DNA of 64,000 nt from positions 1,920,001 to 1,984,000 of the forward strand of contig OY776510.1 in NCBI GenBank assembly GCA_963675665.1, in the 5' to 3' direction. Below, in pieces: positions 32,423-62,200 of the stretch. The translations under genes were made by a program, and so were the position numbers. How positions within the stretch are numbered: the stretch's first letter is position 1; each line of letters opens with the position of its first letter. The DNA is from Spirochaetia bacterium (lineage in GTDB: Bacteria > Spirochaetota > Spirochaetia > UBA9216). Under the pieces are notes generated by a model, which was given only the letters and a program-made list of their open reading frames with translations, made no database searches and was not told the DNA's origin.

Positions 32423-34240
32423 CTATTTAATCAGGGGAAATTTTACAGTAAATCTGGTTCCGCCTTTAGGTATGTTTTCTGCTGTAATTTCCCCTTTAAA
32501 TTTTGTGATGGTATTGTAGCTGATATACAGCCCCATACCCATGCTCTGATTTCTTTTTTTATTGGAGGAGTAGAACGGCATGAATATAGTATTCATTTTC
32601 CCCTCTTCAATACCGGTTCCCGTATCTTCAAAAATGATCGCTACTTTATCATGTTCCTTATCGCTGTATTTGGTGCTGATGAGAAGTTCGCCTCCGTCCG
32701 GCATGGCTTCTATTGCATTGCGGATTAGATTGAGAAATACCTGTCTTATTTCTGTCTTGCTGGCATAAATTTCAAAAATCTGTTTTGAATCATCAACAAT
32801 AATTCTGACATTACTTTTCTTTGCATTGAATGTTAGAAGCATTACAACTCTTAGGAGCAGATCCGTAACATTGAAAACTTCAAGAGGGGCGTTCTCTTCT
32901 GTTGAGAAACCCATCAGGTTGCTGATAGTCTGGGTGATAACCTTGATCTCATCTTCAATTATTTCAATATCAGCTGTAAGTGAAGTTTCATTACAGTTAT
33001 ATTTCATAATCTCAATGATATTTCTGATTATCCCCAGAGGATGATTGATTTCATGAGCAACACCAGCCGCAAGCATCCCGACAGAAGCAAGTTTTTCATT
33101 CTGGATAATATGTTCTCTGAGTGATTCTTCTTCGGTAGTGTCTGTAAGTATAAGAATCTTCCCGATAGAGTTATTATCTTCCATTATCGAAAATGAAGTT
33201 ATATTTGCTATACGTTTGATTCCGTTGAAGAATATCTGGGTTTTAACTGTCTTTGGAGTTGCATCTGAATTCATCAGCGATGTTTCATACTCTTTGGGAA
33301 CGGTAAGAAGCGCCCTCATGGGTCGGTTAAGCAATTGGGAGGTTTTAATCTGAAAGTAATTTTCGGCATGCAGATTCAGAAATTTAATATTGTAGTTATT
33401 GTCGACAGCGATAAGTACTACAGGCAGATCTATCAAAATGGCCTGATTGTATTTTATCAGGTTATAAAAATCTTTATTTGATGTGATCGTATTATGATTC
33501 AGAACATGGCTGTAGAGAATTTTAAGCAGATTATATTTGTCAAGATTGCCGTAAAGATCTGTAAGTATTATTTCACCCTGTCTCAATACAGAAAGATTTG
33601 TCGTAATCGGCGGAATGTAATCAATATGATTTATAAGAAGCAGGATTACGCCTCCGTTTGAAGCGAGTGTCTTTATTATTGCAATAGTCTTGTTGAAATT
33701 ATCAGCTGTCAGTTTGGACAGCACTTCATCAAGTATAAGAACTTTAGGTTTGCAGAAAATGGATATAAGTATTTCCAGAAAAATCTTTTCTGATTCGCTC
33801 AAACTGCCGATTGGCGTCTCTGCAGTAAAATCAGTATCGTAATCTTTAAGAAATTTATTCACCTCTATATTATATGATTTTGAGTCAAAGACCTTGCTGT
33901 ATTTTTTAATCTGGATATAAATGAAAAATTGTTCGCCTACGGTTATGTTTTCAAGAAGAAATCTGCTGTCGGTTATTACTTCAATGCCCAGCCTTCTGGA
34001 TTCTTTTATTGTAAGATTTCTGTAGGATTTGCTGCCGATTCTTATGCGGCCAGTTGATGCTTTCAGACTGCCTTTAAGTATATTGCTGATCAGACTTTTA
34101 CCGGATTCCTTTTCTCCAAGAATTGTATGAATATCTCCGGGGTGGAGTATAATATTTAAAGGTTTGAGCTCTGTTTTTTGAGCGTTCTTTTTTTGTGGTA
34201 TATATGTAATATTTTCTATTGAAATATCGTCTTTGTTCAT
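32423..34240 (-). CDS. Soluble histidine kinase with N-terminal degenerate sugar-ABC ATPase domain, PAS, HisKA and HATPase
   Basis: ILGEKESGKS (Walker A), VLILDE (Walker B), PAS-like segment, LAAGVAHEINHPL (H box), NLIRNA, EDTGTGI and GMGL. No TM segment seen. Confidence 0.88.
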   Translation of the reverse strand: MNKDDISIENITYIPQKKNAQKTELKPLNIILHPGDIHTILGEKESGKSLISNILKGSLKASTGRIRIGSKSYRNLTIKESRRLGIEVITDSRFLLENITVGEQFFIYIQIKKYSKVFDSKSYNIEVNKFLKDYDTDFTAETPIGSLSESEKIFLEILISIFCKPKVLILDEVLSKLTADNFNKTIAIIKTLASNGGVILLLINHIDYIPPITTNLSVLRQGEIILTDLYGNLDKYNLLKILYSHVLNHNTITSNKDFYNLIKYNQAILIDLPVVLIAVDNNYNIKFLNLHAENYFQIKTSQLLNRPMRALLTVPKEYETSLMNSDATPKTVKTQIFFNGIKRIANITSFSIMEDNNSIGKILILTDTTEEESLREHIIQNEKLASVGMLAAGVAHEINHPLGIIRNIIEIMKYNCNETSLTADIEIIEDEIKVITQTISNLMGFSTEENAPLEVFNVTDLLLRVVMLLTFNAKKSNVRIIVDDSKQIFEIYASKTEIRQVFLNLIRNAIEAMPDGGELLISTKYSDKEHDKVAIIFEDTGTGIEEGKMNTIFMPFYSSNKKRNQSMGMGLYISYNTITKFKGEITAENIPKGGTRFTVKFPLIK

Positions 34241-35574
34241 ACATCGACCTTTTTAAGAGAAATCCTGTACCTGGTGATTTTCCTGTAAAGGGTAGTTCTG
34301 CTGATTCCAAGAGCTTTTGCAGTATCGATTTTGTTGTAATTATACTTCTGCAGAGCCAGTTCAATTCTCTCTCTATCAATTTCAGGTTCAGTTTCAATCG
34401 GGTTGAACTCCCTGGTTTTTACAGCAGGTTTCATGAATTCCGGAAGGCTGTCGACCCCTATAGTATCGTTCAGTGAAGTAGCGCAGGAATATGAAATAAT
34501 ATTTATCAGTTCGCGAATATTTCCAGGCCAGTCGTAATCCATCAGCTTGCCGAAGACATCGTCCTTAATGAAGATCTCTTTCTGGTAATCCCTGTTGTAT
34601 TTATCAACAATATTTTTTACCAGAAGCGGAATGTCGTCTTTACGCTCTCGCAGCGGAGGTATTGTGAAGATTCCGGTATTTAACCTGTAGAAAAGATCTT
34701 CCCTGAATGAATTCTGCTGTACCAGGGTATAAAGGTCCTTATTTGTAGCTGCAATAAACCTGACATCAACTTTAATTATTTCCTTGCCTCCGATTCTTCG
34801 CAGTTCCTTGTTTTGTATTGCGCGCAGGATCTTTGCCTGAAGCGCCATCGACATATCGCCAAGCTCATCAAGAAATAATGAGCTGTTATGTGAGCGCTCA
34901 AAAATTCCCTTATACTGTTTGTCTGCGCCGGTAAAAGCGCCTCTGTCATGTCCGAAAAGTTCATTATCAAGCAGTGATTCCGGAAAGGCGGCGCAGTTTA
35001 TTTTCTGCAGCTGCTGATTCCTCCTTAGTGAATTTGAATGAATGAATTCGGCAAGGAGCTCTTTTCCGGTGCCGCTTTCACCGTTAATAAGTGCCGGCAG
35101 ATCTGTGGAAGCATATAAGGAGGCTTTTTCAAGAAGTTCCAGCATCTTCCGGTTTCTGGTAATTATCCCGTGCGTATGCGAGAAGTATTTTTGAAGTTCG
35201 AACTGTTCGATATTATTATTGCAGTACTTCTCAATCAGGCTTACAAGGTGCTCAATTGAAATAGGCTTCTGTATATAGTCTACCGCACCGGCCTGCATGG
35301 ATATTACCGCTGTTGAGATGGTGCCGTAGGCCGTAATCATGATTACAGGAATTCTGGGATATTTGTCGGCAAATTTTAAAAGCAGATCCATTCCTGATTC
35401 TTCACCGAGCATAATATCAAGAAGTATCATATCTATTTGTTTATCCAACAGAATATTAAAAGCCGAACTGCCGTTTAATGCGCTGAAAGCATTATATCCC
35501 CTTATTTTTAATAATCTGGAAAGCGATATATTATGCATCTCCTGATCGTCGACGATGAGTATGTTCTGTTTCAT
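34237..35574 (-). CDS. Sigma54-dependent NtrC-family response regulator
   Basis: REC (ILIVDD, LLDIML, K), GESGTGKE, GAFTGA, LFLDE, WPGNIREL and Fis HTH. ATG 35574 follows CAGGAGG. Confidence 0.95.
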   Translation of the reverse strand: MKQNILIVDDQEMHNISLSRLLKIRGYNAFSALNGSSAFNILLDKQIDMILLDIMLGEESGMDLLLKFADKYPRIPVIMITAYGTISTAVISMQAGAVDYIQKPISIEHLVSLIEKYCNNNIEQFELQKYFSHTHGIITRNRKMLELLEKASLYASTDLPALINGESGTGKELLAEFIHSNSLRRNQQLQKINCAAFPESLLDNELFGHDRGAFTGADKQYKGIFERSHNSSLFLDELGDMSMALQAKILRAIQNKELRRIGGKEIIKVDVRFIAATNKDLYTLVQQNSFREDLFYRLNTGIFTIPPLRERKDDIPLLVKNIVDKYNRDYQKEIFIKDDVFGKLMDYDWPGNIRELINIISYSCATSLNDTIGVDSLPEFMKPAVKTREFNPIETEPEIDRERIELALQKYNYNKIDTAKALGISRTTLYRKITRYRISLKKVDV

Positions 35575-35584
35575 TAAATCCTCC

Positions 35585-35649
35585 TGAAACAATAATGTTT
35601 CACTTTGTGGTACATTATTGTTACGGTTGGTGGTACATTATTGTACCAC
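35585..35649. promoter_or_regulatory. Three tandem palindromic sites (candidate enhancer/UAS of the NtrC-type regulator)
   Basis: tgaaaca-ataa-tgtttca (35585), gtggtaca-ttat-tgttac (35607) and gtggtaca-ttat-tgtaccac (35630). Common ACA-N4-TGT core, about 22-23 bp period. Confidence 0.7.
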
Positions 35650-41377: not shown

Positions 41378-41390
41378 TAAGGAGATTGTA

Positions 41391-42557: not shown

Positions 42558-42569
42558 GGAGCGTGCAGA

Positions 42570-44689: not shown

Positions 44690-44716
44690 TGTACTTTTAT
44701 ATAGGGAGTATATCTG

Positions 44717-45484: not shown

Positions 45485-45544
45485 TTTATCAGTGTACAAA
45501 GATACGAACAATATTCTCAATTTTAATTCAGAAGGGAGAAACAA

Positions 45545-46573: not shown

Positions 46574-46622
46574 TAAGTATTTTTTCCCTTAAAAATCTGA
46601 AATGTTAAAATCTATTTAATTC

Positions 46623-47568: not shown

Positions 47569-47804
47569 TTAATCTCAAACCGTTTGCACCATTCACAGAT
47601 TGCCTTAACGCTGGTCTGATACTTGTACTGCAGGTTAATTGCCATGCTTTTTCGAGGTTCAACTATTGCGTTAATAAAGTGTGTAAGTTATTTACATGTT
47701 TCCAGTCTTTATGTTTCTTTACATTGAAAGGTAACACTTTCTTAAATACGGTCTTTTGTATATAATTCTTTACTATGAAAAGATTTAGTTGAATTCGTTT
47801 GGAT

Positions 47805-47820
47805 TGGTACAGGAATTGCA
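47805..47820 (+). promoter_or_regulatory. Sigma54 -24/-12 promoter of the GRE operon
   Basis: TGGTACAGGAATTGCA with GG-N10-GC spacing. Candidate UAS tgtaa-gttat-ttaca at 47682-47696. Confidence 0.75.
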
Positions 47821-47857
47821 TTATATTAAACCGAATAATCAACAGAGGAGGAGAAAA

Positions 47858-51425: not shown

Positions 51426-53852
51426 ATGGAAAATATAATCAGCAATGAAGCTTATTTTAAATTGAAAACGGAGTTTTCCGTGCCTTCGGAAAGGTTCACT
51501 GAGCTTAGGGCCAGGTTGCTGGCTGTAAAACCCGAATTGTGCCCGGAGCGTGCACGATATTTGACACAGTCGTTTAAAGAAACAGAGGGCGAACCGTATA
51601 TAATCAGACGGGCAAAGGGTTTCTATAATGTCCTTGCCAATATGTCGTTGTTTATAAATGAAAAAGAACTGTTTGCAGGTAACCAGGCAGGTTCGCTCAG
51701 GGCTTGTCCGTTTTATCCTGAAACGGAAAGTGTATACTTTAAGGAAGAAATTGATCTTTTTCCTGTCAGAGAAAACGATCGTGTTCAGATAAATCCTGAA
51801 GTCAGGGAAGAAGTGCTAAATGAAATCATCCCGTACTGGATTGACAAGAACACGGAAAAGATTTCTCTGAAACGTATTCCTCCGGAAACCCTTGAGTTGA
51901 TAAATGCGCCTCACCAGATCTTTTCTCCCCAGATACATATGAGGGGAAGTCTTGCGCATACTATTGCAGATTATTCCATGGTTCTGGATAAAGGCATACT
52001 TAATATCAGGGAAGAGCTTTTACAAAGGCAAAAAGCCCTGGATTTGACGATACCGGAAAACCTTGAACACTATCATTTTTGCGAAGCAGAAATCATAATT
52101 TGTAATGCGCTTATGCTGCTGGCTTCAAGATACTCCGACCTTGCTTATAAAATGGCTGATGAAGAAACCGATCCCGTCCGTTCGGAAGAGCTTCGTACTA
52201 CAGCTGCAGCATGTGCAAGGGTCCCTGCGTATCCCGTAGAAAGTTTCTTTGAAGCGTTGCAATCCTTCTGGCTTGTTCACCTCGGACTTTATATAGAACA
52301 GAACGGTTTGGCCATTTCGGTAGGACGGTTTGATCAGTATATGTATCCTTACCTGAATGCTGATCTTAAAAATAAAAAAATTACTCTTTCAGAGGCTCAG
52401 GAGTATCTGGATATTTTATGGATTAAATTCACGGAAATAATGAGGGCATATGATCTTAAATCCGCCAGATACTACGGCGGGTTTGCCATATCCGAGAATC
52501 TTGTTCTCGGCGGAATCCTTGAAAACGGGAAAGATGCTACGAACATTCTCTCTTATATGTGCCTTGATTCAGAGTTTAAAACGAGGTTGAGCCAGCCGAA
52601 TGTTGCCGTAAGGATGCATCAGAATATTCCCCGCGCCCTTTTGATAAAGGCATGTAAAATTATAAGAGAGGGCGGCGGAAAACCCGAACTGTTCAATGAT
52701 GACGTCGGTATTCCATTGCTTCTCAGGACCGGCGTCACGCTGGAAGATTCACGCAATTATGATATCTCCGGCTGTGTAGAGCCGGTTCCTCCGGGGACTC
52801 TGGGAATCACGAACGCTTCGATGTCCAACCTTGCAAAGGCGCTGGAGCTTGCCCTTAATAACGGAAAATGCCGTCTGAGCGGAACTCAGATGGGTCCCGT
52901 GACCGGCACGCCCGATAAATTCAAATCAATAGAAGACGTAATATACGCTTTCAGGCAGCAGGTCGAAGCGTATGTAGAGCATATGATTATCGCTATTAAT
53001 ACCATTGAGAGTGTCCACAGGGAGTTTCTGCAGATACCTTTTACTTCGCTTACGCTTACAGGATGTTTAGAGAAGTGTCTTGACGCCACCGCCGGAGGAG
53101 CAATTTATAATTACACAGGACCGCAGGGAGTCGGCGTGGCTGATGTAGCTGACTCTCTTGCCGCAATCCAGAAACTTGTTTTTGAGGATCATTTTATTTC
53201 AATGGATGAACTGAATGCTGCTCTTGATAATAATTTCGAATCATTGCCTGAACTTCTCAATATGGCCCGTAAGGTTCCCAAATACGGTAACGATGATGAT
53301 TATGTCGATCAATATGCATCCGTGATTGCAAAAATTTACTGTGATGCTGTAGAAAAGTATAAAAACCCGAGAGGCGGGGCCTACAGGCCCGGGTTATATC
53401 CGGTATCGGCCAATGTGCCTTTGGGGGAAGCTGTAGGTGCGCTTCCTTCAGGCAGGAAAGCCGGAACTCCTCTTGCTGACGGGATATCCCCGGAACATTT
53501 TATGGACACAAACGGGCCTACGGCGGTTATGAGATCGGCTGCAAAAATGGATCATACTATCGTTTCAAACGGCACGCTTCTTAATCAAAAATTTGATCCG
53601 GTTTATTTAAAAACCGATGAGAACATAAACCGGTTGGTGGATATGATCAGGGCGTATTTTGATCTTGGCGGGTGGCACGTTCAATTCAATGTTGTAAACA
53701 AGGAAACACTGTTGAAGGCCCAGGCTAATCCCGGGGAATATTCAGGACTCCTGGTCAGGGTAGCAGGATACAGCGCTTTCTTTGCCGAGTTAAGCGATGT
53801 TATCCAGAATGATATAATCGACCGAACAGAGTTCTCAGAAATTATAAACTAG
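51426..53852 (+). CDS. Glycyl radical enzyme (PFL2/dehydratase-like), substrate unknown
   Basis: 808 aa. ERAR..T, SVGRFDQY, Cys loop SGCVEP, PKYGNDD, GTLLNQKF, HVQFNV and Gly loop LLVRVAGYSAFF. Confidence 0.95.
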   Translation: MENIISNEAYFKLKTEFSVPSERFTELRARLLAVKPELCPERARYLTQSFKETEGEPYIIRRAKGFYNVLANMSLFINEKELFAGNQAGSLRACPFYPETESVYFKEEIDLFPVRENDRVQINPEVREEVLNEIIPYWIDKNTEKISLKRIPPETLELINAPHQIFSPQIHMRGSLAHTIADYSMVLDKGILNIREELLQRQKALDLTIPENLEHYHFCEAEIIICNALMLLASRYSDLAYKMADEETDPVRSEELRTTAAACARVPAYPVESFFEALQSFWLVHLGLYIEQNGLAISVGRFDQYMYPYLNADLKNKKITLSEAQEYLDILWIKFTEIMRAYDLKSARYYGGFAISENLVLGGILENGKDATNILSYMCLDSEFKTRLSQPNVAVRMHQNIPRALLIKACKIIREGGGKPELFNDDVGIPLLLRTGVTLEDSRNYDISGCVEPVPPGTLGITNASMSNLAKALELALNNGKCRLSGTQMGPVTGTPDKFKSIEDVIYAFRQQVEAYVEHMIIAINTIESVHREFLQIPFTSLTLTGCLEKCLDATAGGAIYNYTGPQGVGVADVADSLAAIQKLVFEDHFISMDELNAALDNNFESLPELLNMARKVPKYGNDDDYVDQYASVIAKIYCDAVEKYKNPRGGAYRPGLYPVSANVPLGEAVGALPSGRKAGTPLADGISPEHFMDTNGPTAVMRSAAKMDHTIVSNGTLLNQKFDPVYLKTDENINRLVDMIRAYFDLGGWHVQFNVVNKETLLKAQANPGEYSGLLVRVAGYSAFFAELSDVIQNDIIDRTEFSEIIN

Positions 53853-54779
53853 ATGAATGGTAATTACGGTATAATTTCGGAGATACAACGATTCTGTATT
53901 CATGACGGGAAGGGTTTAAGGACCACAGTATTTTTAAAAGGCTGTCCGCTTAGATGTGCATGGTGTTCAAATCCTGAAACACAGTCAGCAGAAAAAGAAC
54001 TGATGTATTTTCAAAAAAACTGCGTCGGGTGCGGGCGTTGCATTAACAGTTGTCCAAATAATGCCTTAAGTTTCGATAATCAAAGGGTTGTTGTCGAAAA
54101 GGATAAATGCGATCTATGCGGGAAATGTGAAAAAAGCTGTTTTTATAATGCGCTTAAAATCAAAGGCGAAGAAATGGAAGTCTTTGAAATAATTGAGCTG
54201 CTGATGAAGGATTTCAAGTTTTTTGAAAAGAGCGGCGGAGGCCTGACGATTTCGGGAGGCGAACCTACATCACAACCGGAGTTTACAAAAAAGTTATTAA
54301 TCACTGCTGGAAAGCTGGGAATAAATACAGCTATTGAGACCTGCGCCCTGTGCAGGCAGGAAACCTTGCTGGATATTGCTGAATATTGTGATGAAATATT
54401 TATTGATCTGAAAATTGCGGATGCGGTGGCGCACAGCAAATGGACCGGGGCGGATAACAGGACGATTGTTGAAAATATAAGAATATTATTGAAGACTATG
54501 GCATCCAAAGTAAATATTCGAATTCCTGTGATTGAGGGAATAAATACCGGATATAATGATATTTTTCAAATTTCAAAACTTTTGAAAGATCTTTATTGTG
54601 ATCTTTTACCCAAAGAAATTGTTATAGAGTTAATGCCTTATCATCGTTTGGGCAGCGGCAAGTATGATGCTCTTCAGATGAAATATTCCCTGGAAAATCT
54701 TAAGCCGATGAGTATGGAAAGAATTGAAGATATAAAGAATATTTTTAAAGAAAACGGTATTACAGCCATTACCCCGTAA
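53853..54779 (+). CDS. Glycyl-radical enzyme activating enzyme (radical SAM with ferredoxin insert)
   Basis: HDG.GLRTTVFLKGCPLRCAWCSNPE, two CxxCxxC motifs, GGLTISGGEP and MPYH.LG..KY. Confidence 0.95.
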   Translation: MNGNYGIISEIQRFCIHDGKGLRTTVFLKGCPLRCAWCSNPETQSAEKELMYFQKNCVGCGRCINSCPNNALSFDNQRVVVEKDKCDLCGKCEKSCFYNALKIKGEEMEVFEIIELLMKDFKFFEKSGGGLTISGGEPTSQPEFTKKLLITAGKLGINTAIETCALCRQETLLDIAEYCDEIFIDLKIADAVAHSKWTGADNRTIVENIRILLKTMASKVNIRIPVIEGINTGYNDIFQISKLLKDLYCDLLPKEIVIELMPYHRLGSGKYDALQMKYSLENLKPMSMERIEDIKNIFKENGITAITP

Positions 54780-54792
54780 TTTACGGGGTAAT
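54768..54792. repeat. Perfect palindrome formed by the last four codons of two convergent genes
   Basis: attaccccgtaa-t-ttacggggtaat. Both proteins end ITP* with identical codons ATT ACC CCG TAA. Confidence 0.9.
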
Positions 54793-56595
54793 AACAGGGA
54801 GCTCGATCAGAAATTGAGCTCCCTTCCCGATATCCCTGCCGATTGTGATGTTCCCCTCATGTTTTGTGATAATGCTATGGATAATTGACAAACCCATACC
54901 CAGATGGGTCCCGGTTTTTGTTTTTGTCGAGAAAAAAGGAAGAAAAATATCGCTTATAATATCTGTCGAAATTCCGGGGCCATTATCCTCAAATGTTAAT
55001 TTTAGTTTATCATTAGTATTCTCAAGAGTGATATTGATCTCTCCATTTCCTGTCAGAACATCATTACTGTTTCTTATTAAATTTAACATAATTTGTTTAT
55101 ATTCGTTTTGGGTTATCGGACAAAATGCAAGATCCTCAAGTTTATTTAGAAGATTGATTCTCAACCCGTCATATTGCGGATTATGTTTGATAAAGCTTAT
55201 TATTTGGGCTGTTGTTTCATAAATATTGACATAGTCGTTCTTTGTCGGGTTTTTATCCGAAAAGGATATAAGGTTGTCGACTACATTCTCAATGAAATCC
55301 AACTCCTCTCTTATATGATCATACAGTTCAATATCTTCAGACTTTGTTCTTTTAAACAACAGCAGGTTAGAGAAACTGTTCAGGGCCTCGAGAGAGTTGT
55401 TAATTTCATGGGCAATGCCTGCGGACAGAATACCAATTGAGGAAAGATTCTGTGCGAGGATAAGTTTTTCCTGCAAAGTCACAAGTTCAGAAACATCTTC
55501 AATTAAAAAAATATTCCCGATATTCATACTGTCTTCTGTAATCGGTAAAATTTTTATATTTACACTCGTCTGTCTGTTCCCTATTATCATCGGGACATGG
55601 TAAAAACTGTGAATTTGATTTGTATTTGATGATTCTTCAATTATATGAAGAAATGAATTATTATTCTTTGCAAAAAAATCATTAAGCCGGCTTTTCAGGT
55701 AGTCTTCATTTTCAATATTAAAATATTTCTTGAAATAGTTGTTTACCATTATAATTTCCATTTGACGATTTGTAACAATTATATTTGACGGAAGGCTTTC
55801 AAGAATTGCTTCGTTGAATTTCAGGAAATGATAAAATGACTTATTTAATTCTTCCATATTATATGTAAGCGAAGGATTTGTGTATGTAAGTCTGATAAGA
55901 TTAATTTTGTCAATGCTGTCTATTTTATCCGAAAAGATTATTTCGCCGTTTTTTATTATACTGACTCTTTCGGCGATATCGTAAATATAACTTATTTTTG
56001 TTGTAAAGAATAATACTGATCCACCTTTTTGGGAGTAATCCTTAAGTATCTCGTAAACCCTGACAAGATCCGCCGAGTTGATTTTGGAAAACATCTCGTC
56101 AATAATCAGCAATTCAGGAACAGGTTCCAGCTTGTTTAATAATTCAAGAATTGCAATATCTGATTGATTAAGATTTTTAAGCTGTGCAAAGGGGTCGATA
56201 TCAAAACCATACTTGTGAAAGTCTCTTTTTGCCATACTCACAAATCTTTTTCTGCTGCTGAAGCCTATTATATGTTTGCTAAACTTGTTGTGGTACAGAT
56301 ACTCCCCGGCTATAAAGGCCTGATTAAGAATAAGATGCTGGGGTACCATGGTTATTGACGGTTTATTTTTTATTCTGGCAAGTTTAGAATGGGTTTGCCC
56401 CCGGTATGTAAATGTTCCGGAAGAATTCAGCAATTGATTTTTCAGCAGTTTTCCCAGCAATGTTTTTCCGGCTCCGGATTCTCCGATTATTGCATGAACC
56501 TCGCCCCTGTTTAAATCAAGATTTATTATATTCAGATACATTTTATCTTTAAAATGGACTTTTATATTGTTCAGACTTAATAACGGATTAATCAT
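54781..56595 (-). CDS. Soluble histidine kinase with N-terminal degenerate sugar-ABC ATPase domain, PAS, HisKA and HATPase
   Basis: GEVHAIIGESGAGKT, MVPQ, LLIIDE, PAS-like segment, SAGIAHEINNSL, NLIRNS, EDNGPGI and GMGL. ATG 56595 overlaps the regulator stop (ATGA). Confidence 0.88.
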   Translation of the reverse strand: MINPLLSLNNIKVHFKDKMYLNIINLDLNRGEVHAIIGESGAGKTLLGKLLKNQLLNSSGTFTYRGQTHSKLARIKNKPSITMVPQHLILNQAFIAGEYLYHNKFSKHIIGFSSRKRFVSMAKRDFHKYGFDIDPFAQLKNLNQSDIAILELLNKLEPVPELLIIDEMFSKINSADLVRVYEILKDYSQKGGSVLFFTTKISYIYDIAERVSIIKNGEIIFSDKIDSIDKINLIRLTYTNPSLTYNMEELNKSFYHFLKFNEAILESLPSNIIVTNRQMEIIMVNNYFKKYFNIENEDYLKSRLNDFFAKNNNSFLHIIEESSNTNQIHSFYHVPMIIGNRQTSVNIKILPITEDSMNIGNIFLIEDVSELVTLQEKLILAQNLSSIGILSAGIAHEINNSLEALNSFSNLLLFKRTKSEDIELYDHIREELDFIENVVDNLISFSDKNPTKNDYVNIYETTAQIISFIKHNPQYDGLRINLLNKLEDLAFCPITQNEYKQIMLNLIRNSNDVLTGNGEINITLENTNDKLKLTFEDNGPGISTDIISDIFLPFFSTKTKTGTHLGMGLSIIHSIITKHEGNITIGRDIGKGAQFLIELPVITP

Positions 56596-57911
56596 TTTTT
56601 CTCTTGGCATGGAATCTTATATTTATCGATTTTATTGTAAAGGGTTTTTCTGGATATTCCCAATTCTTCTGCTGTCCGTTTCTTGTTAAATTTATTTTTC
56701 CTCAACGAGTTGAAGATTGTATTGTATTCAACATTGGCGATAGGGCTGGGATTAAAATTGGAGTTCTTTAAACTGTATAAATTGTGCGGCAGGTCTGATA
56801 TTTTGATATTATTATCAGTACAAACCGCAGAAGCATATTCAATAACATTTTTGAGTTCGCGAATATTCCCCGGCCAATGATATTTACAAAGCAGTTTTAT
56901 AACTTCCTTGTCAATTGAAATACTATTGTCTGATATTTCAATAAAATGAGTAATCAGCAGCGGTATGTCCTCACGTCTTTCCCTTAAAGGGGGAATCTCA
57001 AATATTACAGTATTTAACCTGAAATATAGGTCCTCCCGGAATGTGTTATTATGCATCATCTGTTGTATATTTTTATTTGTTGCCGCTATAAATCTTGTAT
57101 TTATTTTGATAATTTCATCTCCGCCAAGCCTTCTTATTTCATTGTTTTGCAAAGTTCGTAGTATCTTTGCTTGGATATCCAGAGACATATCGCCTATCTC
57201 ATCAAGAAACAGGCTGCTGTTATCAGCACGTTCGAATACGCCTTTATATTGTCTGTCTGCACCTGTGAAAGCTCCTCTTTCATGTCCGAAAAGTTCATTG
57301 TCGAGCAGGTTCTCCTGAAAAGCAGCGCAATTAATTTTCAGTATTCTGTTTTCTTTTCGGGGAGAATGAAAGTGCAGTTTCTCGGCTATATTTTCTTTTC
57401 CGACACCATTTTCGCCCAAGATAAGGACAGGTAGGTTTGTCGGCCCTATCTTTTCAATCCTGCTGATTATTTCAAGCATTCTTGGGTTCTGGGTAATTAT
57501 CCGGGTTTCAAATGAGTCTTCAGATGTTTTTTTATCAATACTTTTAAAATTGTTTAGTATGGAACTTTTAACTGTATTATAAAGCTGATCGTATTTAATC
57601 GGTTTCTGAATATAATCATATGCCCCGTATTTCATTGCGTCAACAGCAGACACTACAGTTCCAAAGCCGGTTATTATGATGACAGGTACTGACGGAATCA
57701 TTTTTTTTAATTTTTTCAGGACCTCTATGCCGTTCTCATCGCCCAACATTAAATCAAGAAGAATACAATGCGGATTAAATTTGATAATACGATGAAATAC
57801 ACTTTTAGAAGAGAGCGCGTATTCCGCTTGATATCCATTTTTTTCGAAGTTTTTCTTCAGGCCTATACAAATATTTTCTTTATCATCTATAATAAAAAGT
57901 CTGTATTTCAT
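56592..57911 (-). CDS. Sigma54-dependent NtrC-family response regulator
   Basis: REC (IIDD, LLDLML), GENGVGKE, GAFTGA, FLDEIGD, WPGNIREL and Fis HTH. Confidence 0.95.
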   Translation of the reverse strand: MKYRLFIIDDKENICIGLKKNFEKNGYQAEYALSSKSVFHRIIKFNPHCILLDLMLGDENGIEVLKKLKKMIPSVPVIIITGFGTVVSAVDAMKYGAYDYIQKPIKYDQLYNTVKSSILNNFKSIDKKTSEDSFETRIITQNPRMLEIISRIEKIGPTNLPVLILGENGVGKENIAEKLHFHSPRKENRILKINCAAFQENLLDNELFGHERGAFTGADRQYKGVFERADNSSLFLDEIGDMSLDIQAKILRTLQNNEIRRLGGDEIIKINTRFIAATNKNIQQMMHNNTFREDLYFRLNTVIFEIPPLRERREDIPLLITHFIEISDNSISIDKEVIKLLCKYHWPGNIRELKNVIEYASAVCTDNNIKISDLPHNLYSLKNSNFNPSPIANVEYNTIFNSLRKNKFNKKRTAEELGISRKTLYNKIDKYKIPCQEKK

Positions 57912-58090: not shown

Positions 58091-58129
58091 AAACCTCTGA
58101 TAACACTAAATCAATGTTGTCAGAGGTTT
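58091..58129 (-). terminator. Long hairpin downstream of the minus-strand ABC operon
   Basis: aaacctctgataaca-ctaaatcaa-tgttgtcagaggttt, 15 bp with one mismatch or wobble. Confidence 0.6.
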
Positions 58130-58152
58130 GCTTAATATAAGCAGTTAATAAG

Positions 58153-58677
58153 TTATTCCGGAAAAAATTTCACTTCGCTGGTTTCAGTCCAGGGGATGTC
58201 CGGCGGTGTGCCGAAATTTTTCACCATTTCGATACGTATGTACTTTGCATTTACAGGCTTATCCAGTTTGAAGGTCTGCCAGCTTTCCTCTTTTTTAATT
58301 TTGCATTCTAGGACCTTTGTCCATTCGACCGAATCTATATCATCCAGATCAGATTTAAGCTCCCGCGGAGCTTCTGTATTGCAGATATAGATATTAATGT
58401 CGCTTGCGAGTTCTTCCAGTATGCTTATCGGCAGTCCGACGTTTGTGAAAAACCTGACTGTTTTGACGGGCTGCTCTTCCCCGAAAAAACTCAGAATTAC
58501 GTTTACCGGCCCCATTGTATTGGCGCCGTATGTTCCTCCGCTGCGTTCAATATCATCATCGATTATGTTGAGTACCCAGAAAAGCGGGTTGCTTTCCGTG
58601 TGACTGGCCCATTCAATCCTGGTGTAATAGGAGCCGTCGCGTCTGAGCCCCAGCGGATATAGTTCTTTATTATTCAT
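58153..58677 (-). CDS. Stand-alone discoidin/F5-8 type C (galactose-binding-like) domain protein
   Basis: N.IDDD..., W..V, WQTF.L..PVNAKYIRIE...NFG and C-terminal SEVKFF. RBS GGAGG; no signal peptide. Confidence 0.6.
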   Translation of the reverse strand: MNNKELYPLGLRRDGSYYTRIEWASHTESNPLFWVLNIIDDDIERSGGTYGANTMGPVNVILSFFGEEQPVKTVRFFTNVGLPISILEELASDINIYICNTEAPRELKSDLDDIDSVEWTKVLECKIKKEESWQTFKLDKPVNAKYIRIEMVKNFGTPPDIPWTETSEVKFFPE

Positions 58678-58692
58678 GTCATTCCTCCAATA

Positions 58693-59655
58693 TTATGCGG
58701 CGTTGTCCACGCCGATTCGTTTTTTACGGAATTTTTCAGATTGCGACTGCGCAACAACCACACCGAGCAGCAGAAGGGCAGTGAAGATGTTTATCCACCA
58801 GACCATTACGTTGAAACGGCCCAACAGCGTTTCAATTACTGCATAGATGAGTACGCCGTAAACGGTTCCGCTGCAGTTGCCGCGCCCTCCTGTCAGAAGT
58901 GTGCCTCCGAGAACAACGGATGCTATTGCAGTCAGCTCCCAGCCCTGTCCGGCTGTGTTCTGGGCCGAACTGAGCCTTGCCGTAAGCAGCAGGCCTGCAA
59001 GGCCTGAACAGAAGCCGCTGATCCCGTATACAATCATTTTTACTTTTACAACATTTATGCCCATCATCTTGGCGGCTTCTTCATTGCCTCCGACTGCATA
59101 GACTTCCCGCCCGAATTTTGTGTAGTTCAGAACGATGATCGAAATAAATACAATGACAGCGAAAAGCCAGATCAGAATTGGGAAACCCAGGAAGTTTCCC
59201 TGTCCCAGTCTTGTGAATGAGTCCGAGATTTCTTTCAGTCCCAGTGGTTTCTCGCCGGAGATAATCAGAGATGCGCCTCTTGCTCCCATCATCATTGCAA
59301 GGGTTGCAACAAAAGGCGGAACCTTAAGCTTTCCGACGACAAAACCGTTAAAAAGACCCAGAGCTGCGCCGGCTACCAGCGGTACAATAATGGGCAGAAG
59401 CCAGAAGCTGTCTGTGAGTACTGCGGCGCTGAACCCTGCAACTGCCGCTATTGAGCCGACAGAAAGATCAATTCCGCCGGTAAGAATAATAAATGTCATT
59501 CCGACTGCGACAATTCCCACCATGCTGTAACCTCTTACTATATCCATTGCAACATTAAACGAAAGAAGTGAGGGGAATTTTATGATGCCGAAGAGAATCA
59601 GCAACAGCAAAGCGGATAGTGCCGCCCGCTTTTTGAAAAAATTGAAAATAAACAT
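58693..59655 (-). CDS. Sugar ABC permease (YjfF-like)
   Basis: GMTFIILTGGIDLSVGS, GGNEEAA.MMG and EL.AIASVVLGGTLLTGG. Confidence 0.9.
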   Translation of the reverse strand: MFIFNFFKKRAALSALLLLILFGIIKFPSLLSFNVAMDIVRGYSMVGIVAVGMTFIILTGGIDLSVGSIAAVAGFSAAVLTDSFWLLPIIVPLVAGAALGLFNGFVVGKLKVPPFVATLAMMMGARGASLIISGEKPLGLKEISDSFTRLGQGNFLGFPILIWLFAVIVFISIIVLNYTKFGREVYAVGGNEEAAKMMGINVVKVKMIVYGISGFCSGLAGLLLTARLSSAQNTAGQGWELTAIASVVLGGTLLTGGRGNCSGTVYGVLIYAVIETLLGRFNVMVWWINIFTALLLLGVVVAQSQSEKFRKKRIGVDNAA

Positions 59656-59668
59656 CGCTCAAGCTCCT

Positions 59669-60628
59669 TTAATCTTTTTTACGGTACACGTTGGGTATAA
59701 CTGCCAGAATAAGAATTGCTGCCTTTGCCACCTTTCCCCAGCTGGAGAGTATGCCGTTCATATTTACCGTCATGACTACCAGCTGCATAATCAGGGCGCC
59801 GATTATTGTTCCCCAGAGATATGCCTTGCCTCCGTTCAGGGATGTTCCGCCGACGGCTACAGCGGCTATTGCATTCATCTCCATGTTTATTCCCATCCGG
59901 GCCGCTTCCGCCTGGCTTTCCCGTCCTACTTCGATTACCGATGCAATACCGGCTGCAAAAGCGCTGATAATATAGACAAGGGCTGTAATTTTAAAGGTAT
60001 CTATTCCGGTAAAGTTTGCTGCTGTGCGGTTATTGCCTATGCACTGTATCTGGCTGCCGAAAACTGTTCTTTTAATGATAAAAACAGCTGCGACGGTGAA
60101 AATTAATATCAGTGCAAACTGCAGCGGCATTCCCTGCTTCCAGAAACGGAATGAAGCGATGGTGTTTAACGGTGTGTAGGAGAACGGTACAGGCCTTCCT
60201 GCCGTCACTACCTGGGCAAACCCGCGGATGGCCAGCATGGTCACAAGAGTCATGACTATAGGCTGTACTTCGAATTTTGCAATAAAATATCCGTTTACTG
60301 CGCCGACGAGAATACCGATTGAGAGTGCAACGATTATACAAATAATCAGCGGAATTCCGGATACCATCATCGCGGCCAGGATTGTACCTGTCAGAGCCAT
60401 TGTTGCCCCTACGGAAATATCAATGCCGCCGGAGGATATCACAAAGGTCATGCCGAGACCCACTATAGCAATCGGAAAAGCCTGTACAACCAGAAGCCAG
60501 AGCGTTCTCAGGCTTAAAAAATTATTTGTAAATATACAGTTGAATATTACCATTACCAGCAGAAAAATTGCTGCGCCCCACTTCTGAATAAAAGAAGCAT
60601 CGTAATTATCAGTTTTTATCCCTTTCAT
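59669..60628 (-). CDS. Sugar ABC permease (YtfT-like)
   Basis: GMTFVI.SGGIDISVGA, QPIV.TL..M.A.RG.AQ and EM.AIAAVAVGGTSL.GG. Confidence 0.9.
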   Translation of the reverse strand: MKGIKTDNYDASFIQKWGAAIFLLVMVIFNCIFTNNFLSLRTLWLLVVQAFPIAIVGLGMTFVISSGGIDISVGATMALTGTILAAMMVSGIPLIICIIVALSIGILVGAVNGYFIAKFEVQPIVMTLVTMLAIRGFAQVVTAGRPVPFSYTPLNTIASFRFWKQGMPLQFALILIFTVAAVFIIKRTVFGSQIQCIGNNRTAANFTGIDTFKITALVYIISAFAAGIASVIEVGRESQAEAARMGINMEMNAIAAVAVGGTSLNGGKAYLWGTIIGALIMQLVVMTVNMNGILSSWGKVAKAAILILAVIPNVYRKKD

Positions 60629-62154
60629 TTGTCCCTCTCATGAACTCTGGCCATTGCATTCATCAGGTTCTTTTCGGAAATCTCCTCTCCGATAAACTCT
60701 CCGGCCTTTCTGCCTTCGGAAAGTACTGCAATCCGGTCGCATGCCCTTACCAGTTCTTCAACTTCGGAAGAAATCATCAGGACGCCGATATTATCATCTG
60801 CAAGTCCTTTGATAATTTCTTCAATTTCTTTTTTCGCTCCGACATCTATTCCCCGTGTCGGTTCGTCGAGAATCAGAAGTTCAGGATTAAGACACAGCCA
60901 TCTTGCAAGCAGAACCTTTTGTTGATTTCCTCCGGAAAGGTTTTTTATAAGCTGATTTTCACTGGGGGTCTTGATTCTGAGAATATCAATAAATTTATTA
61001 ACAATTTCATTTATCCTGGTTTCATCTTTAAGCCCGAATTTACTTATCCGCGGCAGAAGTGCAACAATCAGGTTGTCCTTGATGGACATGTCGGGGAATA
61101 TCCCCTCGGCTTTTCTGTCTTCAGAACAGAAGCCCATTCCACTCTTAATGGCTTCCAGTGATTTCTTTAACACAACCTCGTTGCCATGAATACTGACAGT
61201 TCCGGAATCTCTCTCGTCAATACCGAAAAGCACTCGTGCAAATTCAGTTCTGCCGGATCCGAGCAGCCCCGATAACCCTACAACCTCGCCTTTTTTCAGC
61301 TCCAGGCTCAGGTCTCTGAGTTTGATGCCTGACGCTATGCCCTGACTTTTGCAGATGGTTTCTCCGGTAATCGGTTTATAATCTTTTTTATAATCAAGAA
61401 CAGTTGATGCGTTTCTTCCGATCATTCTGGTAACAAGGTCAAGCTTGTCGGTTTCCGAGGTCGGCATGGTCCCAACCATTTTGCCGTCCCTGAGAATGGT
61501 AACCGTATCAGCTATTTCAAAAATCTCATCCAGCCTGTGCGAGACAAAGATTATTGAAATACCGTTTGACTTGAGATCATTTATAATTTTAAAAAGAATC
61601 TTTACTTCATGTTCGTCAAGAGAAGATGTCGGTTCGTCCATGACAACCAGTTTAGCCTGTGTGGAAATAGCACGGGCAATGGCCGTCAGCTGGGAAATCG
61701 CGGTGCTGCATTCTTCAAGGGGTTTCAGGGTATCCATTTCAAGTCCGAAATTATCCAGAAAAATTGCTTTGGATTCTTTCTCCATTAAAGTCCAGTCGAT
61801 TAACCCCGTCTTTTTCCGCGGCTGTCTTCCGATGAAAATATTCTCGGCAATTGAAAGATATGGTATCAGGTTAAGTTCCTGATAGATTGTGCTTATTCCG
61901 ATGTGCTGGGCTTCCAGCGGCGACTGCGGTCTGATCGAGTCTCCGTCAAGCAAAATCGAGCCCTCGTCCATACTGAAAACACCGGTGAGAATTTTGATTA
62001 ATGTTGATTTTCCGGCGCCGTTTTCTCCCATTAAAGCGTGTACTTCATTTCTTTTTACTGTGAAATCGACATTCTGAAGGGCCTGGACGCCGGTGAATGA
62101 TTTTGAAATATTCGACATTTCAAGCAGGTTGTTAGTATCCAATTTAAACCTCAC
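60625..62154 (-). CDS. Sugar ABC ATP-binding protein (YtfR-like)
   Basis: GENGAGKSTLIK.LTG, DEPTSSLD, GLLGSGRTE and LSGGNQQK. Confidence 0.93.
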   Translation of the reverse strand: MRFKLDTNNLLEMSNISKSFTGVQALQNVDFTVKRNEVHALMGENGAGKSTLIKILTGVFSMDEGSILLDGDSIRPQSPLEAQHIGISTIYQELNLIPYLSIAENIFIGRQPRKKTGLIDWTLMEKESKAIFLDNFGLEMDTLKPLEECSTAISQLTAIARAISTQAKLVVMDEPTSSLDEHEVKILFKIINDLKSNGISIIFVSHRLDEIFEIADTVTILRDGKMVGTMPTSETDKLDLVTRMIGRNASTVLDYKKDYKPITGETICKSQGIASGIKLRDLSLELKKGEVVGLSGLLGSGRTEFARVLFGIDERDSGTVSIHGNEVVLKKSLEAIKSGMGFCSEDRKAEGIFPDMSIKDNLIVALLPRISKFGLKDETRINEIVNKFIDILRIKTPSENQLIKNLSGGNQQKVLLARWLCLNPELLILDEPTRGIDVGAKKEIEEIIKGLADDNIGVLMISSEVEELVRACDRIAVLSEGRKAGEFIGEEISEKNLMNAMARVHERDK

Positions 62155-62158
62155 ATAA

Positions 62159-62182
62159 ACAGCCGGGCATTAGCCCGGCTGT
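62159..62182 (-). terminator. Stem-loop after SBP gene
   Basis: acagccgggc-atta-gcccggctgt. Confidence 0.65.
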
Positions 62183-62200
62183 GATAAATCTCTTTTACTG

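Follow-up and report, generated by a model that had tools for sequence, protein, structure and literature searches.

A widespread family of two-component systems whose sensor kinase carries an ABC nucleotide-binding domain of the CUT2 type

Introduction

The nucleotide-binding domains (NBDs) of ABC transporters are known as motors, and it is also known that sensor kinases use transporters as co-sensors, with kinase and transporter being separate proteins. In PstSCAB-PhoU-PhoR, BceAB-BceS, MalK-MalT and DctA-DcuS, the regulator reads the working state of the transporter and not the free ligand, and in the case of Pst/PhoR and MalK/MalT this read-out runs via the importer NBD. CbrB, the partner regulator of the kinase CbrA, is sigma54-dependent. 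In the kinases of the CbrA/CrbS type, a solute-symporter domain of the SLC5 family is fused to the kinase (PMC7096432, PMC5715377). A fusion of an NBD with a kinase was not found described in the open-access literature searched, which included passages of PMC12316311, and no dedicated NCBIfam model for such a family was found.

Organization of the kinase/regulator pair

The window, i.e. the whole stretch of DNA that was analysed (64,000 nucleotides of a Spirochaetia genome), contains two kinase/regulator pairs, of which the second (copy 2) is in focus here. Both of its open reading frames, 54781-56610(-) and 56592-57911(-), are present. They encode a sigma54-dependent two-component system that belongs to a widespread but so far uncharacterised family. 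Its features are:

54781..56595 (-), sensor histidine kinase, 604 aa, soluble, with NBD, PAS, DHp and CA
55882..56595 (-), ABC nucleotide-binding domain of the CUT2 first-NBD type, N-terminal, residues 1-238
55789..55881 (-), variable tether (residues ~240-250, predicted disordered) and conserved PAS N-cap helices (SFYHFLKFNEAILESLP)
55495..55788 (-), PAS domain, residues ~270-367 (Pfam PAS_4/PAS_9)
54784..55491 (-), kinase core with DHp (369-444) and catalytic ATP-binding domain (458-604) (Pfam HisKA, HATPase_c)
56592..57911 (-), NtrC/AtoC-type response regulator, 439 aa, with receiver, AAA+ and Fis-type HTH
32423..35592 (-), copy 1 system, kinase 32423-34240 and regulator 34237-35592

The kinase frame is open from 54781 up to 56610 on the reverse strand, but the second Met is the preferred start, and the database protein P0003 (98% identical) has the matching length of 604 aa. 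Given this start, the kinase ATG (56595-56593) overlaps the regulator stop codon (56594-56592) in an ATGA, so that the proposed coupling of the two genes holds, provided that the kinase begins at the second Met. In Pfam searches, the kinase matched ABC_tran (26-173, 49.2 bits, cut-off 25), PAS_4 (270-376, 25.4 bits, cut-off 23.1) as well as PAS_9, and HATPase_c (503-606, 69.7 bits). HisKA (395-453) reached 23.1 bits and is under its cut-off of 26.9, yet the H-box carries an invariant His throughout the family: the phospho-acceptor His396 in HEINN was found in 107/107 representatives and in all of 119 aligned sequences. The same Pfam domain order is found in copy 1, as had been claimed, and the two kinases share 28% identity over 600 residues (E 1e-70). 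The regulator matched Response_reg, Sigma54_activat (212 bits), AAA_lid_14 and HTH_8, and its translation contains GAFTGA and the acidic-pocket Asp, while its NCBIfam AtoC/NtrC matches fall below their cut-offs.

The copy 2 kinase has no membrane-helix-like hydrophobic stretch outside the NBD core and is a soluble protein without membrane anchor. Its AlphaFold2 model (mean pLDDT 77) consists of a confident NBD, a disordered tether at 240-250, where pLDDT is about 40, N-cap helices at 252-267, and then a PAS-DHp-CA part that resembles LOV/PAS-kinases. The best Foldseek matches of the model are PAS/LOV-kinases such as 4gcz, and the best solved relative of the kinase core is the PAS-kinase 3a0r_A.

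The nucleotide-binding domain and its origin

The top 50-odd matches of the NBD among non-family proteins of the genome all align at residues ~3-255 of tandem ATPases of ~500 aa, and its NCBIfam matches, YtfR, AlsA, LsrA, AraG, XylG and MglA, all cover profile positions 1-240. Judged by these alignments, the kinase NBD derives from the first NBD of the tandem ATPases of CUT2 sugar importers, which is also the domain that it resembles most. As it has one NBD only, followed by PAS and kinase domains, the protein is a CUT2 first-NBD derivative and no RbsA-like ATPase.

In the copy 2 NBD, Walker A (GESGAGKT) and the Q-loop (Gln86) are kept, as the earlier note had stated, and Walker B reads LLIIDE. 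The canonical ABC signature motif is LSGGQ. At its position, copy 2 has LNQSD, the D-loop is degenerate (DEMFSKIN region), the H-switch position contains FTTKI with Thr instead of His at residue 199, and the closing helix is IDKINLIRLTY. The absence of the H-switch from copy 2 had been recognised correctly, but it had also been taken for a trait shared by the copies, and such a loss is no family trait, as 74 of the 107 representatives of the family retain the His.

The motif counts out of 107 refer to these full-length representatives. The Walker A Lys is present in 102/107, the Walker B Asp in 103/107 and the catalytic Glu in 97/107 (it is gone in 3/24 aligned members). The Walker A Gly/Lys and the Walker B Asp hardly vary across the family, and neither does the helix that closes the NBD. 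The Q-loop Gln is found in 82 and missing in 25 representatives, and it is absent also from copy 1 and from the paralogue L017. The fourth signature position is Gly in just six of the 107, the family consensus being L-x-L-S-D/E-R. Relative to the CUT2 first NBDs, DEAL stands in place of the DEPT of the D-loop region (in CUT2, P 0.97, T 0.88) and conservation of the third signature Gln is relaxed, whereas the VAENxF helix after the Q-loop is retained about equally (N99 0.86 vs 0.99). Overall, the family conserves the ATP/Mg-binding residues, with catalytic and dimer-interface motifs relaxed or altered.

It could be argued that the NBD is a working motor subunit that energises the neighbouring permease, alone or together with the tandem ATPase, the protein being then a transporter ATPase with a kinase tail. 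Walker A, the Walker B Asp-Glu, the Q-loop and the H-switch each occur in the family majority (74-103/107), and a few neighbouring operons (L139, L142) have only single-NBD ATPases of 262-281 aa. Every well-sampled neighbour operon encodes its own ATPase, however, and the missing H-switch His and altered D-loop of copy 2, the near-absence of the fourth signature Gly and the losses of the catalytic Glu also speak against a motor function, which we regard as improbable.

Linker, PAS domain and kinase core

The earlier note had pointed to a conserved NBD-PAS linker, which in copy 2 comprises the strings IDKINLIRLTY and FYHFLKFNEAIL..LP, and this linker indeed stands out in the alignments as the most conserved part of the family. 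Its residues Y238, F254, N261, A263, L265, L268 and P269 are near-invariant, and the tether with the N-cap helices is the hallmark of the family. The PAS domain is the least conserved domain, with a mean identity of 23% among eight paralogues as compared to 30-39% for the other domains, and of 29% over all module pairs. In the catalytic domain, the N, G1, F and G2 boxes of HATPase_c are all present, with N505, N509, D537, G539, F551, G566 and G568 invariant. Among the eight nearest non-fusion relatives that were scanned, six have HAMP or GAF at the position of the NBD, and the remaining two have a diguanylate-cyclase-like sensor domain there.

The family and its linkage to CUT2 importers

The genome carries not two copies, as had been assumed, but eight full-length kinase/regulator pairs; all eight paralogues are intact and without stop codons, and each kinase gene comes after an NtrC-type regulator gene. 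Both ABC_tran and HATPase_c are present in 119 of the 120 best database matches, a family-specific linker profile collected 357 clusters at 50% identity, and the fusion occurs in several phyla. The view that this is a real family and no chance fusion is supported by the eight paralogues, the database matches and the linker clusters. Among the best 150 representatives, 107 have a length of ~600-625 aa, 41 are shorter (most likely fragments) and two are longer. A contig profile search with the full-length alignment found fusions in just 5 of 80 loci (L019-L022, L095), because its search patterns had been drawn from the kinase core, and in a metagenome scan with a single protein, none of 146 pattern matches encoded a relative.

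An NBD that is the decaying relic of a chance fusion, in a protein that acts as an ordinary PAS kinase, would agree with the degradation of several canonical ABC motifs in copy 2. The uniform length of the fusions, their occurrence in several phyla, the intact state of all eight paralogues and the near-invariant Walker A, Walker B and last-helix residues argue against it, and because of this conservation of the NBD the relic reading is close to refuted.

Genes of this family almost always neighbour a CUT2 importer operon, in most cases a single-permease one. A CUT2 ATPase is encoded within 9 kb of the kinase and regulator genes in 43 of 59 modules, 38 of which have one permease and five have two. 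Clustered by an ATPase identity of 50-60% or more, the importers beside the kinases represent 21-25 single-permease and 1-4 double-permease lineages; the single-permease background is 31/65, taken from this one genome only. The linkage of the homologues to mostly single-permease CUT2 importers, which had been named as the point on which the earlier proposal could fail, is strong. Two loci (L013, L138) have no ABC genes within at least 7 kb on both sides. In the genome studied here, six of the eight pairs are divergent from an operon of binding protein, ATPase and one permease, and copy 2 is convergent with one.

Sigma54-type promoters and the probable target operon

The following features lie on the forward strand next to the copy 2 kinase gene:

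47805..47820 (+), sigma54-type -24/-12 promoter TGGTACAGGAATTGCA, 38 nt before the binding-protein start codon
47858..51407 (+), CUT2 importer genes, whole block
47858-48865 (+), CUT2 binding protein (Pfam; NCBIfam RbsB-like, below equivalog cut-off)
48928-50439 (+), CUT2 tandem-NBD ATPase (Pfam; NCBIfam XylG-like, below equivalog cut-off)
50433-51407 (+), CUT2 single permease (Pfam; NCBIfam RbsC-like, below equivalog cut-off)
51426-53852 (+), glycyl radical enzyme (Pfam), same operon as the importer
53853-54779 (+), radical-SAM activase (Pfam), same operon as the glycyl radical enzyme

The glycyl-radical-enzyme and activase genes matched TIGR01774 with 771.9 bits (cut-off 678) and TIGR02494 with 323 bits. 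Copy 1 is divergent from its operon of binding protein, ATPase and single permease, which has a sigma54-type promoter at 35775-35790(+). Copy 2 does not follow this layout: its kinase gene and the importer/glycyl-radical-enzyme operon are convergent and meet tail to tail, and their stop codons lie 2 nt from each other. The claim that this operon has a sigma54 promoter of its own agrees with the sigma54-type site at 47805: the consensus has two matches in the window against 0.33 expected, and the site scores 10/11, whereas scores of at least 9 occur in 0.8% of random 300-nt windows. Sites of at least 8/11 are found upstream of the neighbouring operon in all eight loci of the genome (5.3% of random 300-nt windows reach 8), which also contains rpoN. 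No sigma54-like site was found upstream of the regulator genes themselves or of the two-permease operon described below, and a search for upstream activator sites at 47450-47860 gave weak repeats only and no motif shared with the promoter region of L013. Position and conservation point to the 47805 promoter as the putative target of the regulator, and the two-component pair probably turns the neighbouring importer on.

Copy 2 lies also downstream, on the same strand, of a different CUT2 operon with two permeases (58153-63286(-)). As a target of copy 2 this operon was rejected: its best sigma54 score is just 6/11, a hairpin and T-rich stretch at ~58097-58131 separates it from the regulator gene, and the orthologous locus L144 retains the glycyl-radical-enzyme operon instead. 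The hairpin with its T-rich stretch was spotted by eye, and the terminator scan did not report one. The L144 orthologue, which the search matched with 57% identity over the N-terminal 290 aa, shares the convergent arrangement of copy 2, and in the domain alignment its NBD is 52% and the permease 74% identical. The paralogue closest to copy 2 (38%) has beside it, in divergent orientation, an ADH-ADH-glycyl-radical-enzyme operon that bears a sigma54 site. We infer that the target of copy 2 is the convergent operon of binding protein, ATPase, permease, glycyl radical enzyme and activase.

What the nucleotide-binding domain may do

The NBD would be the input domain of the kinase, and it is possible, though we say so tentatively and with somewhat less than even confidence, that an ATP-loaded pair of NBDs docks on the permease dimer and reports the state of the importer. 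The kinase dimer, with ATP bound to both of its NBDs, would sit on the coupling helices of the homodimeric CUT2 permease instead of the tandem ATPase. Once a sugar-loaded binding protein engages the permease, the two NBDs would close, and in copy 2 the closed state may persist, as without the H-switch the usual route of ATP turnover would not be available. The closure would be relayed by the short tether and the conserved PAS N-cap helices to the DHp helices and read as His autophosphorylation, and the phosphorylated regulator would activate the promoter at 47805. With such a relay, the external substrate would be sensed through the importer and uptake would not be needed. A more far-reaching form of this reading, which we consider conceivable but short of probable, is a signalling-only ABC complex, in which the closure of two poorly hydrolysing NBDs would be read directly as His autophosphorylation and the ABC importer would become a transmembrane receptor without a membrane-spanning sensor protein of its own.

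A specific pairing with the transporter, as the earlier note had suggested, should have left traces of co-evolution between NBD and permease, which was addressed by mirror-tree analyses with partial correlations, nearest-neighbour ranks and a permease motif search. Kinase-NBD distances and permease distances correlate with rho 0.22, no more than those of the kinase core (0.24) or the regulator (0.30), and the partial r is -0.04, in a test of low power, as permease and ATPase of the same importer reach only 0.31-0.40. Kinase and regulator distances correlate with rho 0.85-0.89. Nearest-neighbour ranks, likewise of low power, gave no support for a specific NBD-permease pairing, and no residue pattern separates kinase-adjacent from other single-permease permeases (maximal difference 0.45; permutation 95th percentile 0.43). 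Similar kinases are found next to unrelated importers: in six kinase pairs with NBDs that are 52-62% identical, the adjoining permeases share 26-45% identity, as compared to a mean of 36% for all pairs. The suggested co-evolution is not supported, and any docking of the NBD would need to be generic, which leaves the specificity of the signal without explanation in a cell that encodes 70 CUT2 ATPases and eight NBD-kinases. The lack of co-variation beyond shared descent, the loss of the Q-loop Gln in copy 1, L017 and 25 of the 107 representatives, and the two loci without neighbouring ABC genes all speak against docking.

The main alternative is that the NBD is an ATP-dependent dimerisation clamp or an energy-charge sensor that never touches the importer, and that the PAS domain provides the substrate specificity and binds an imported sugar or a catabolite within the cytoplasm; the CUT2 origin would then be a by-product of regulator genes having adjoined a CUT2 ATPase gene at the time of the fusion. 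Such a role is a serious possibility, if not a probable one. It agrees with the best conservation in the NBD being that of the ATP-binding residues while catalytic residues are dispensable, with the predicted flexibility of the tether that leads from the NBD to the PAS N-cap, with the repeated change of importer partners in the absence of co-variation, with the loci that have no neighbouring importer, and with the strong divergence of the PAS domain, as expected of a specificity module. But it gives no reason for the single-permease bias over 22-29 importer lineages nor for the near-exclusive occurrence of this input domain beside CUT2 operons, and the PAS domain is conserved no less in 'swapped' pairs (0.38-0.53) than in orthologous pairs (0.37-0.76), so that these pairs do not speak for a specificity role of PAS.

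If the NBD docks as proposed, the fusion would give a direct handle on the conversion of importer conformation into a phosphorylation signal, and it would be explained how soluble kinases sense external sugars; if it does not dock, kinases would have in it a novel input module that depends on ATP. Under both readings, regulators can be assigned to operons for many sugar and glycyl-radical-enzyme pathways that lack annotation, in anaerobes that are rich in sigma54-dependent sugar operons.

Comparison with known systems

AtoS/AtoC and NtrB/NtrC likewise combine a PAS-DHp-CA kinase with a regulator of receiver, AAA+ sigma54 activator and Fis-HTH, and AtoS (kinase residues 246-601) and AtoC are the best NCBIfam matches, though far under the equivalog cut-offs (183 vs 646 and 387 vs 714 bits). 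The solved PAS-kinases ThkA (3a0r) and YF1 (4gcz) resemble the kinase core. What sets the family apart from kinases of the AtoS, NtrB, ThkA and YF1 types is the input, which is an ABC NBD and not a membrane, HAMP, GAF or LOV module.

For the NBD, the closest known proteins are the first NBDs of RbsA, XylG, AraG, MglA, AlsA, LsrA and YtfR, ATPases of ~500 aa to whose profile positions 1-240 residues 1-237 of the kinase align. They have in common with the kinase NBD Walker A (GExGAGKS) and Walker B, the Q-loop, the VAENxF helix and also the helix that follows the domain. Unlike the CUT2 ATPases, the kinase has no second NBD, its signature is L-x-L-S-D/E-R and it has DEAL where they have DEPT; conservation is relaxed at the third signature Gln and at E176, copy 2 has lost the H-switch, and P160, D202, A208 and IDKxNLIKLAYTQ are newly conserved. 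MalK, MetN, FbpC and PotA also have an NBD followed by a regulatory module, and Foldseek aligns 384-424 columns of the model to them, but as the rmsd is 11-14 A, the likeness is one of module order only, and in the present family the NBD is followed by a PAS domain that continues into a kinase.

In Pst/PhoR, Bce, MalK/MalT and DctA/DcuS, a separate kinase or activator binds the transporter or an adaptor, whereas here the NBD is built into the kinase and we infer the contact with the importer. NBD and kinase are thereby fused within one family that is found in several phyla, with up to eight copies per genome, and next to one class of importers. The CbrA/CrbS kinases also have a module of a transporter family N-terminal to the sensor-kinase core, but there a secondary transporter has contributed its membrane permease, whereas in the kinases described here the module is the soluble ATPase head of a primary transporter, an ABC importer.

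The gene pair and its domains

Copy 2 consists of an NtrC-type regulator gene and a kinase gene, the product of which is headed by an ABC nucleotide-binding domain (NBD).

Genes of copy 2
54781-56610, minus strand: kinase gene as the longest ORF, downstream partner; Pfam ABC_tran 26-173, PAS 266-376, HisKA 395-453, HATPase_c 503-606
56592-57911, minus strand: regulator gene, upstream partner, overlapping the kinase gene; Pfam Response_reg, Sigma54_activat, AAA_lid_14, HTH_8

The translated regulator (56592-57911) contains GAFTGA, and its TGA overlaps the second Met codon of the kinase in an ATGA, as read in AAAATGATTAAT. From this second Met the kinase has 604 aa, the same length as a 98%-identical database protein, and residues are numbered on this form. 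The motifs quoted in the earlier note are all present, and the gene and domain order is the same in copy 1 (kinase 32423-34240, regulator 34237-35592), as had been stated, with 28% identity over 600 residues (E 1e-70).

An AlphaFold2 model of the kinase (119 sequences as input, mean pLDDT 77, pTM 0.44) gave the following parts.

Modelled parts of the copy 2 kinase
Residues 1-238: NBD, confident
Residues 240-250: tether, disordered and variable, pLDDT about 40
Residues 252-267: PAS N-cap, two short helices
Residues 271-367: PAS
Residues 369-444: DHp, long helices, followed by the catalytic domain

The N-cap region carries the invariant residues F254, N261, A263, L265, L268 and P269. The conservation of the linker that had been noticed between the copies is real, with the last NBD helix and the PAS N-cap conserved more strongly than any other part of the kinase (39% identity among the paralogues, NBD 30%, PAS 23%), but this linker is not a single element: it consists of these two parts, between which the model places the disordered tether. 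In Foldseek searches, the C-terminal two thirds of the kinase match PAS/LOV kinases such as 4gcz, and the NBD with the next module loosely matches importer ATPases with C-terminal regulatory domains. None of the solved structures covers both halves; the top match is the PAS-kinase 3a0r_A, at profile positions 264-615. A 19-residue hydropathy scan of the kinase detected no segment suggestive of a membrane helix, the highest means (1.15-1.96) falling on stretches buried within the NBD and PAS folds. The NBD occupies the input slot, because the closest NBD-less relatives mostly have HAMP or GAF there (6 of the 8 scanned; the other two match a diguanylate-cyclase-like sensor domain).

Size and spread of the family

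The NBD-kinase family is firmly established as real and widespread. Where two pairs had been seen and taken as a family, the genome (5.15 Mb, one contig) holds eight, with full-length kinase paralogues 27-38% identical to copy 2 that are each preceded by an NtrC-type regulator gene; a linker-only profile also counts eight copies. In a collection of 5.8 billion proteins, 119 of the best 120 hits have both ABC_tran and HATPase_c at about 570-660 aa; these 120 come from candidate division KSB3, Spirochaetes, Desulfomarina and Spartobacteria and bear only generic source names ('histidine kinase', 'ATP-binding cassette domain-containing protein'). An 86-position family profile, spanning NBD end, linker and PAS start, was searched in 1.84 billion clusters at 50% identity and found 357 representatives at E <= 0.001 and 180 at E <= 1e-10. 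Among the best 150 of the 357, 107 have 585-650 aa, 2 are longer and 41 are shorter, the latter most likely being fragments. The family occurs in 14 of 401 sampled genomes of the window's phylum, with eight copies here and 1-3 in the others, and in the phylum of a KSB3 locus (L019), 7 of 9 genomes have 2-6 copies.

There is no NCBIfam model for the fusion: residues 246-601 of the kinase match AtoS with 183 bits (cut-off 646), and residues 1-237 match the first half of models for the ATPases of CUT2, a class of sugar ABC importers with a tandem-NBD ATPase. The fusion is also not described in the full-text literature searched, which mostly lies outside subscription journals, including passages of a sigma54-regulon paper (PMC12316311). 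Seven of the eight regulator-kinase pairs have a G+C content (0.345-0.406) below that of the genome (0.433) and of their own 5-kb flanks, copy 2 being the lowest (0.345); weak expression or recent spread are candidate reasons.

Origin of the NBD

It is firmly shown that the input domain derives from a CUT2 first NBD and has kept the nucleotide-binding residues. Among all ORFs of the genome, its best hits outside the family are without exception N-terminal NBDs of tandem ATPases of about 500 aa. In a column-by-column comparison of 86 non-redundant kinase NBDs with 103 CUT2 first NBDs, the former retain Walker A, G53, G60 and the VAENxF helix after the Q-loop, and also the Walker B Asp (1.00), the Glu (0.87) and the H-switch His (0.81), with the Q-loop Gln at 0.95 versus 1.00 in CUT2. 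Relaxed are K13, G17 and V18 near the A-loop, K49, E87, G103, the third signature Gln, E176 and the DEPT motif, which has become DEAL, and newly conserved are P160, D202, A208 and the last helix IDKxNLIKLAYTQ.

The least biased sample for motif counts are the 107 full-length representatives, in which the phospho-acceptor His is invariant (107/107), while the Walker B Asp is kept in 103, the Walker A Lys in 102 and the catalytic Glu in 97, with lower counts for the Q-loop Gln (82), the H-switch His (74) and the fourth-position Gly of the signature (6). Nucleotide binding is thus under strong selection, unlike hydrolysis by the canonical route and the canonical NBD-NBD interface. The H-switch had been said to be lacking, which is true of copy 2, with Thr at 199 one of the roughly 30% of members without it, but not of the family, though only 3 of the 8 paralogues in this genome have the His. 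As to the role of the NBD, that of a motor is very improbable, and that the domain is a relic is hardly credible.

Promoters and the probable target of copy 2

It is firmly shown that the neighbouring operons carry promoter sequences of the sigma54 type. A search of the 64-kb window with a strict -24/-12 pattern gives two sites, where 0.33 would be expected.

Sigma54-type sites
35775: strict -24/-12 pattern before the divergent binding-protein gene of copy 1
47805: TGGTACAGGAATTGCA, 38 nt upstream of the first ATG (47858) of the glycyl-radical-enzyme operon, which runs from the binding-protein gene through ATPase, permease (50433-51407) and glycyl radical enzyme to the activase

The strict match at 47805 agrees with the earlier view that this operon has its own sigma54 promoter. 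With a graded score, the neighbouring operon is preceded by a site of at least 8 of 11 in all eight loci (random 300-nt windows reach 8 in 5.3% and 9 in 0.8% of cases); for the two-permease operon that lies upstream of copy 2 the score is 6, and no sigma54 site was found upstream of the regulator genes. The genome has one sigma54 gene. That copy 2 is associated with the glycyl-radical-enzyme operon in a conserved way is firmly shown: the metagenomic orthologue L144 keeps the convergent layout, including activase and glycyl radical enzyme. In the search, its kinase was 57% identical to that of copy 2 over 290 N-terminal aa, and by domain alignment the identity is 52% for the NBD, 74% for the permease and 65-75% for the ATPase. 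The glycyl radical enzyme next to copy 2 scores above the TIGR01774 subfamily cut-off and reaches no equivalog cut-off. It is likely that the regulator drives the promoter at 47805.

Where the convergent activase and kinase genes meet, their stop regions make up a perfect palindrome of 12+1+12 (54768-54792, ATTACCCCGTAA T TTACGGGGTAAT), and therefore both proteins end in Ile-Thr-Pro-stop, read in opposite directions from the same 12 bases. The palindrome could fold into a hairpin used by the two transcripts; it is absent from L144, where the gene ends differ and are separated by 12 nt. On the other side of the pair, a two-permease CUT2 operon (permease genes at 58693-60628) ends in a 174-aa ORF (58153-58677, minus strand) with no Pfam or NCBIfam hit, and between it and the regulator gene a hairpin with a T-rich stretch can be seen by eye (about 58097-58131) that was not reported by a terminator scan. 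Elsewhere, the minus strand encodes SelB (580 aa) and SelA (449 aa) at 27649-30742, so the organism uses selenocysteine. Downstream of the copy 1 importer, a run of plus-strand genes (39801-47387) encodes one protein with a DUF2148 ferredoxin domain, five alcohol dehydrogenases (four zinc-type, one iron-type), one short-chain dehydrogenase and a protein of 254 aa. The latter matches just the central part of the profile for glycoside hydrolase family 88 (positions 72-256 of 352) and may be truncated.

Neighbouring importers and the mode of input

Adjacency to CUT2 operons is firmly shown to be near-obligate, with a preference for single-permease ones. Six of the eight pairs in this genome are divergent from an operon of binding protein, tandem ATPase and single permease, and copy 2 faces one in convergent orientation. 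The eighth pair contains the paralogue closest to copy 2 (L013, 38%, G000:C1:4312120-4313949) and diverges from an ADH-ADH-glycyl-radical-enzyme operon. This operon has a strong sigma54 site (TGGCACGTCGATTGCT), and no ABC genes lie within 9 kb of L013; if its NBD needs a permease, this must be encoded elsewhere.

In the own genome, 14 other genomes and 53 metagenome contigs, 59 kinase-regulator modules were found, from which count L166, on the same contig as L019, was dropped. A CUT2 ATPase lies within 9 kb in 43, and the linkage to single-permease systems proposed from two copies holds in 38 of these, the other 5 having two permeases. Among the 15 remaining modules, four (L176-L179) do have a CUT2 operon, the over-long ATPase ORF call of which failed the length filter, one (L139) has a single-NBD ATPase, and in eight the contig extends for less than 3 kb beyond the regulator gene on its upstream side; L013 and L138 are the only well-flanked modules without ABC genes. 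Clustered on ATPase identity with cut-offs of 50, 55 and 60%, the 43 importers fall into 21-25 single-permease and 1-4 double lineages, which, against 31 of 65 single-permease systems in this one genome as background and with lineages that are not fully independent, gives a binomial p of about 1e-5 to 1e-6. The set of sugar importers in the whole genome is unusually large, with 70 genes for tandem-NBD ATPases and 95 for permeases of the CUT2 class; there is one permease near 31 of the ATPases, two near 32, three near 2 and none near 5. In two other genomes, kinase-adjacent operons combine single-NBD ATPases of 262-281 aa with CUT2-type permeases (L139, 5803-6600; L142, 3922-4710 and 7207-8052).

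The adjacency can be explained if the two ATP-loaded NBDs of a kinase dimer dock on a homodimeric permease, which is the reading tentatively favoured here. Docking would explain the origin of the NBD, the CUT2 adjacency and the single-permease bias, and also the missing membrane or periplasmic part and the dispensable hydrolysis.

A transporter-specific pairing, as had been suggested, is not borne out by co-evolution in the 38 single-permease modules: the kinase domains and the regulator correlate closely (Spearman 0.83-0.89), whereas the NBD reaches 0.22 with the permease (partial correlation given kinase core and regulator -0.04) and about 0 with either ATPase NBD, in a test that is weak, as permease and ATPase of one importer reach only 0.31-0.40. 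The nearest NBD neighbour also has the nearest permease in 22 of the 38, which are orthologues inherited as blocks. Six pairs with NBDs 52-62% identical have permeases only 26-45% identical (all-pairs mean 36%), and no residue pattern separates kinase-adjacent permeases from other single-permease ones. Because similar NBDs thus adjoin dissimilar permeases at greater depth, the system has been re-attached to unrelated CUT2 importers several times, the NBD showing no visible adaptation.

Docking fails on specificity because the importer partners were swapped. Both the specificity and the swaps are accounted for by the main rival, in which the NBD would be an ATP-dependent clamp and the PAS domain the ligand sensor; this is quite possible as well, but leaves the single-permease bias unexplained. 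Docking of the kinase NBDs on the permease stays the tentatively favoured reading. None of the comparable known systems has a kinase with an NBD of its own.
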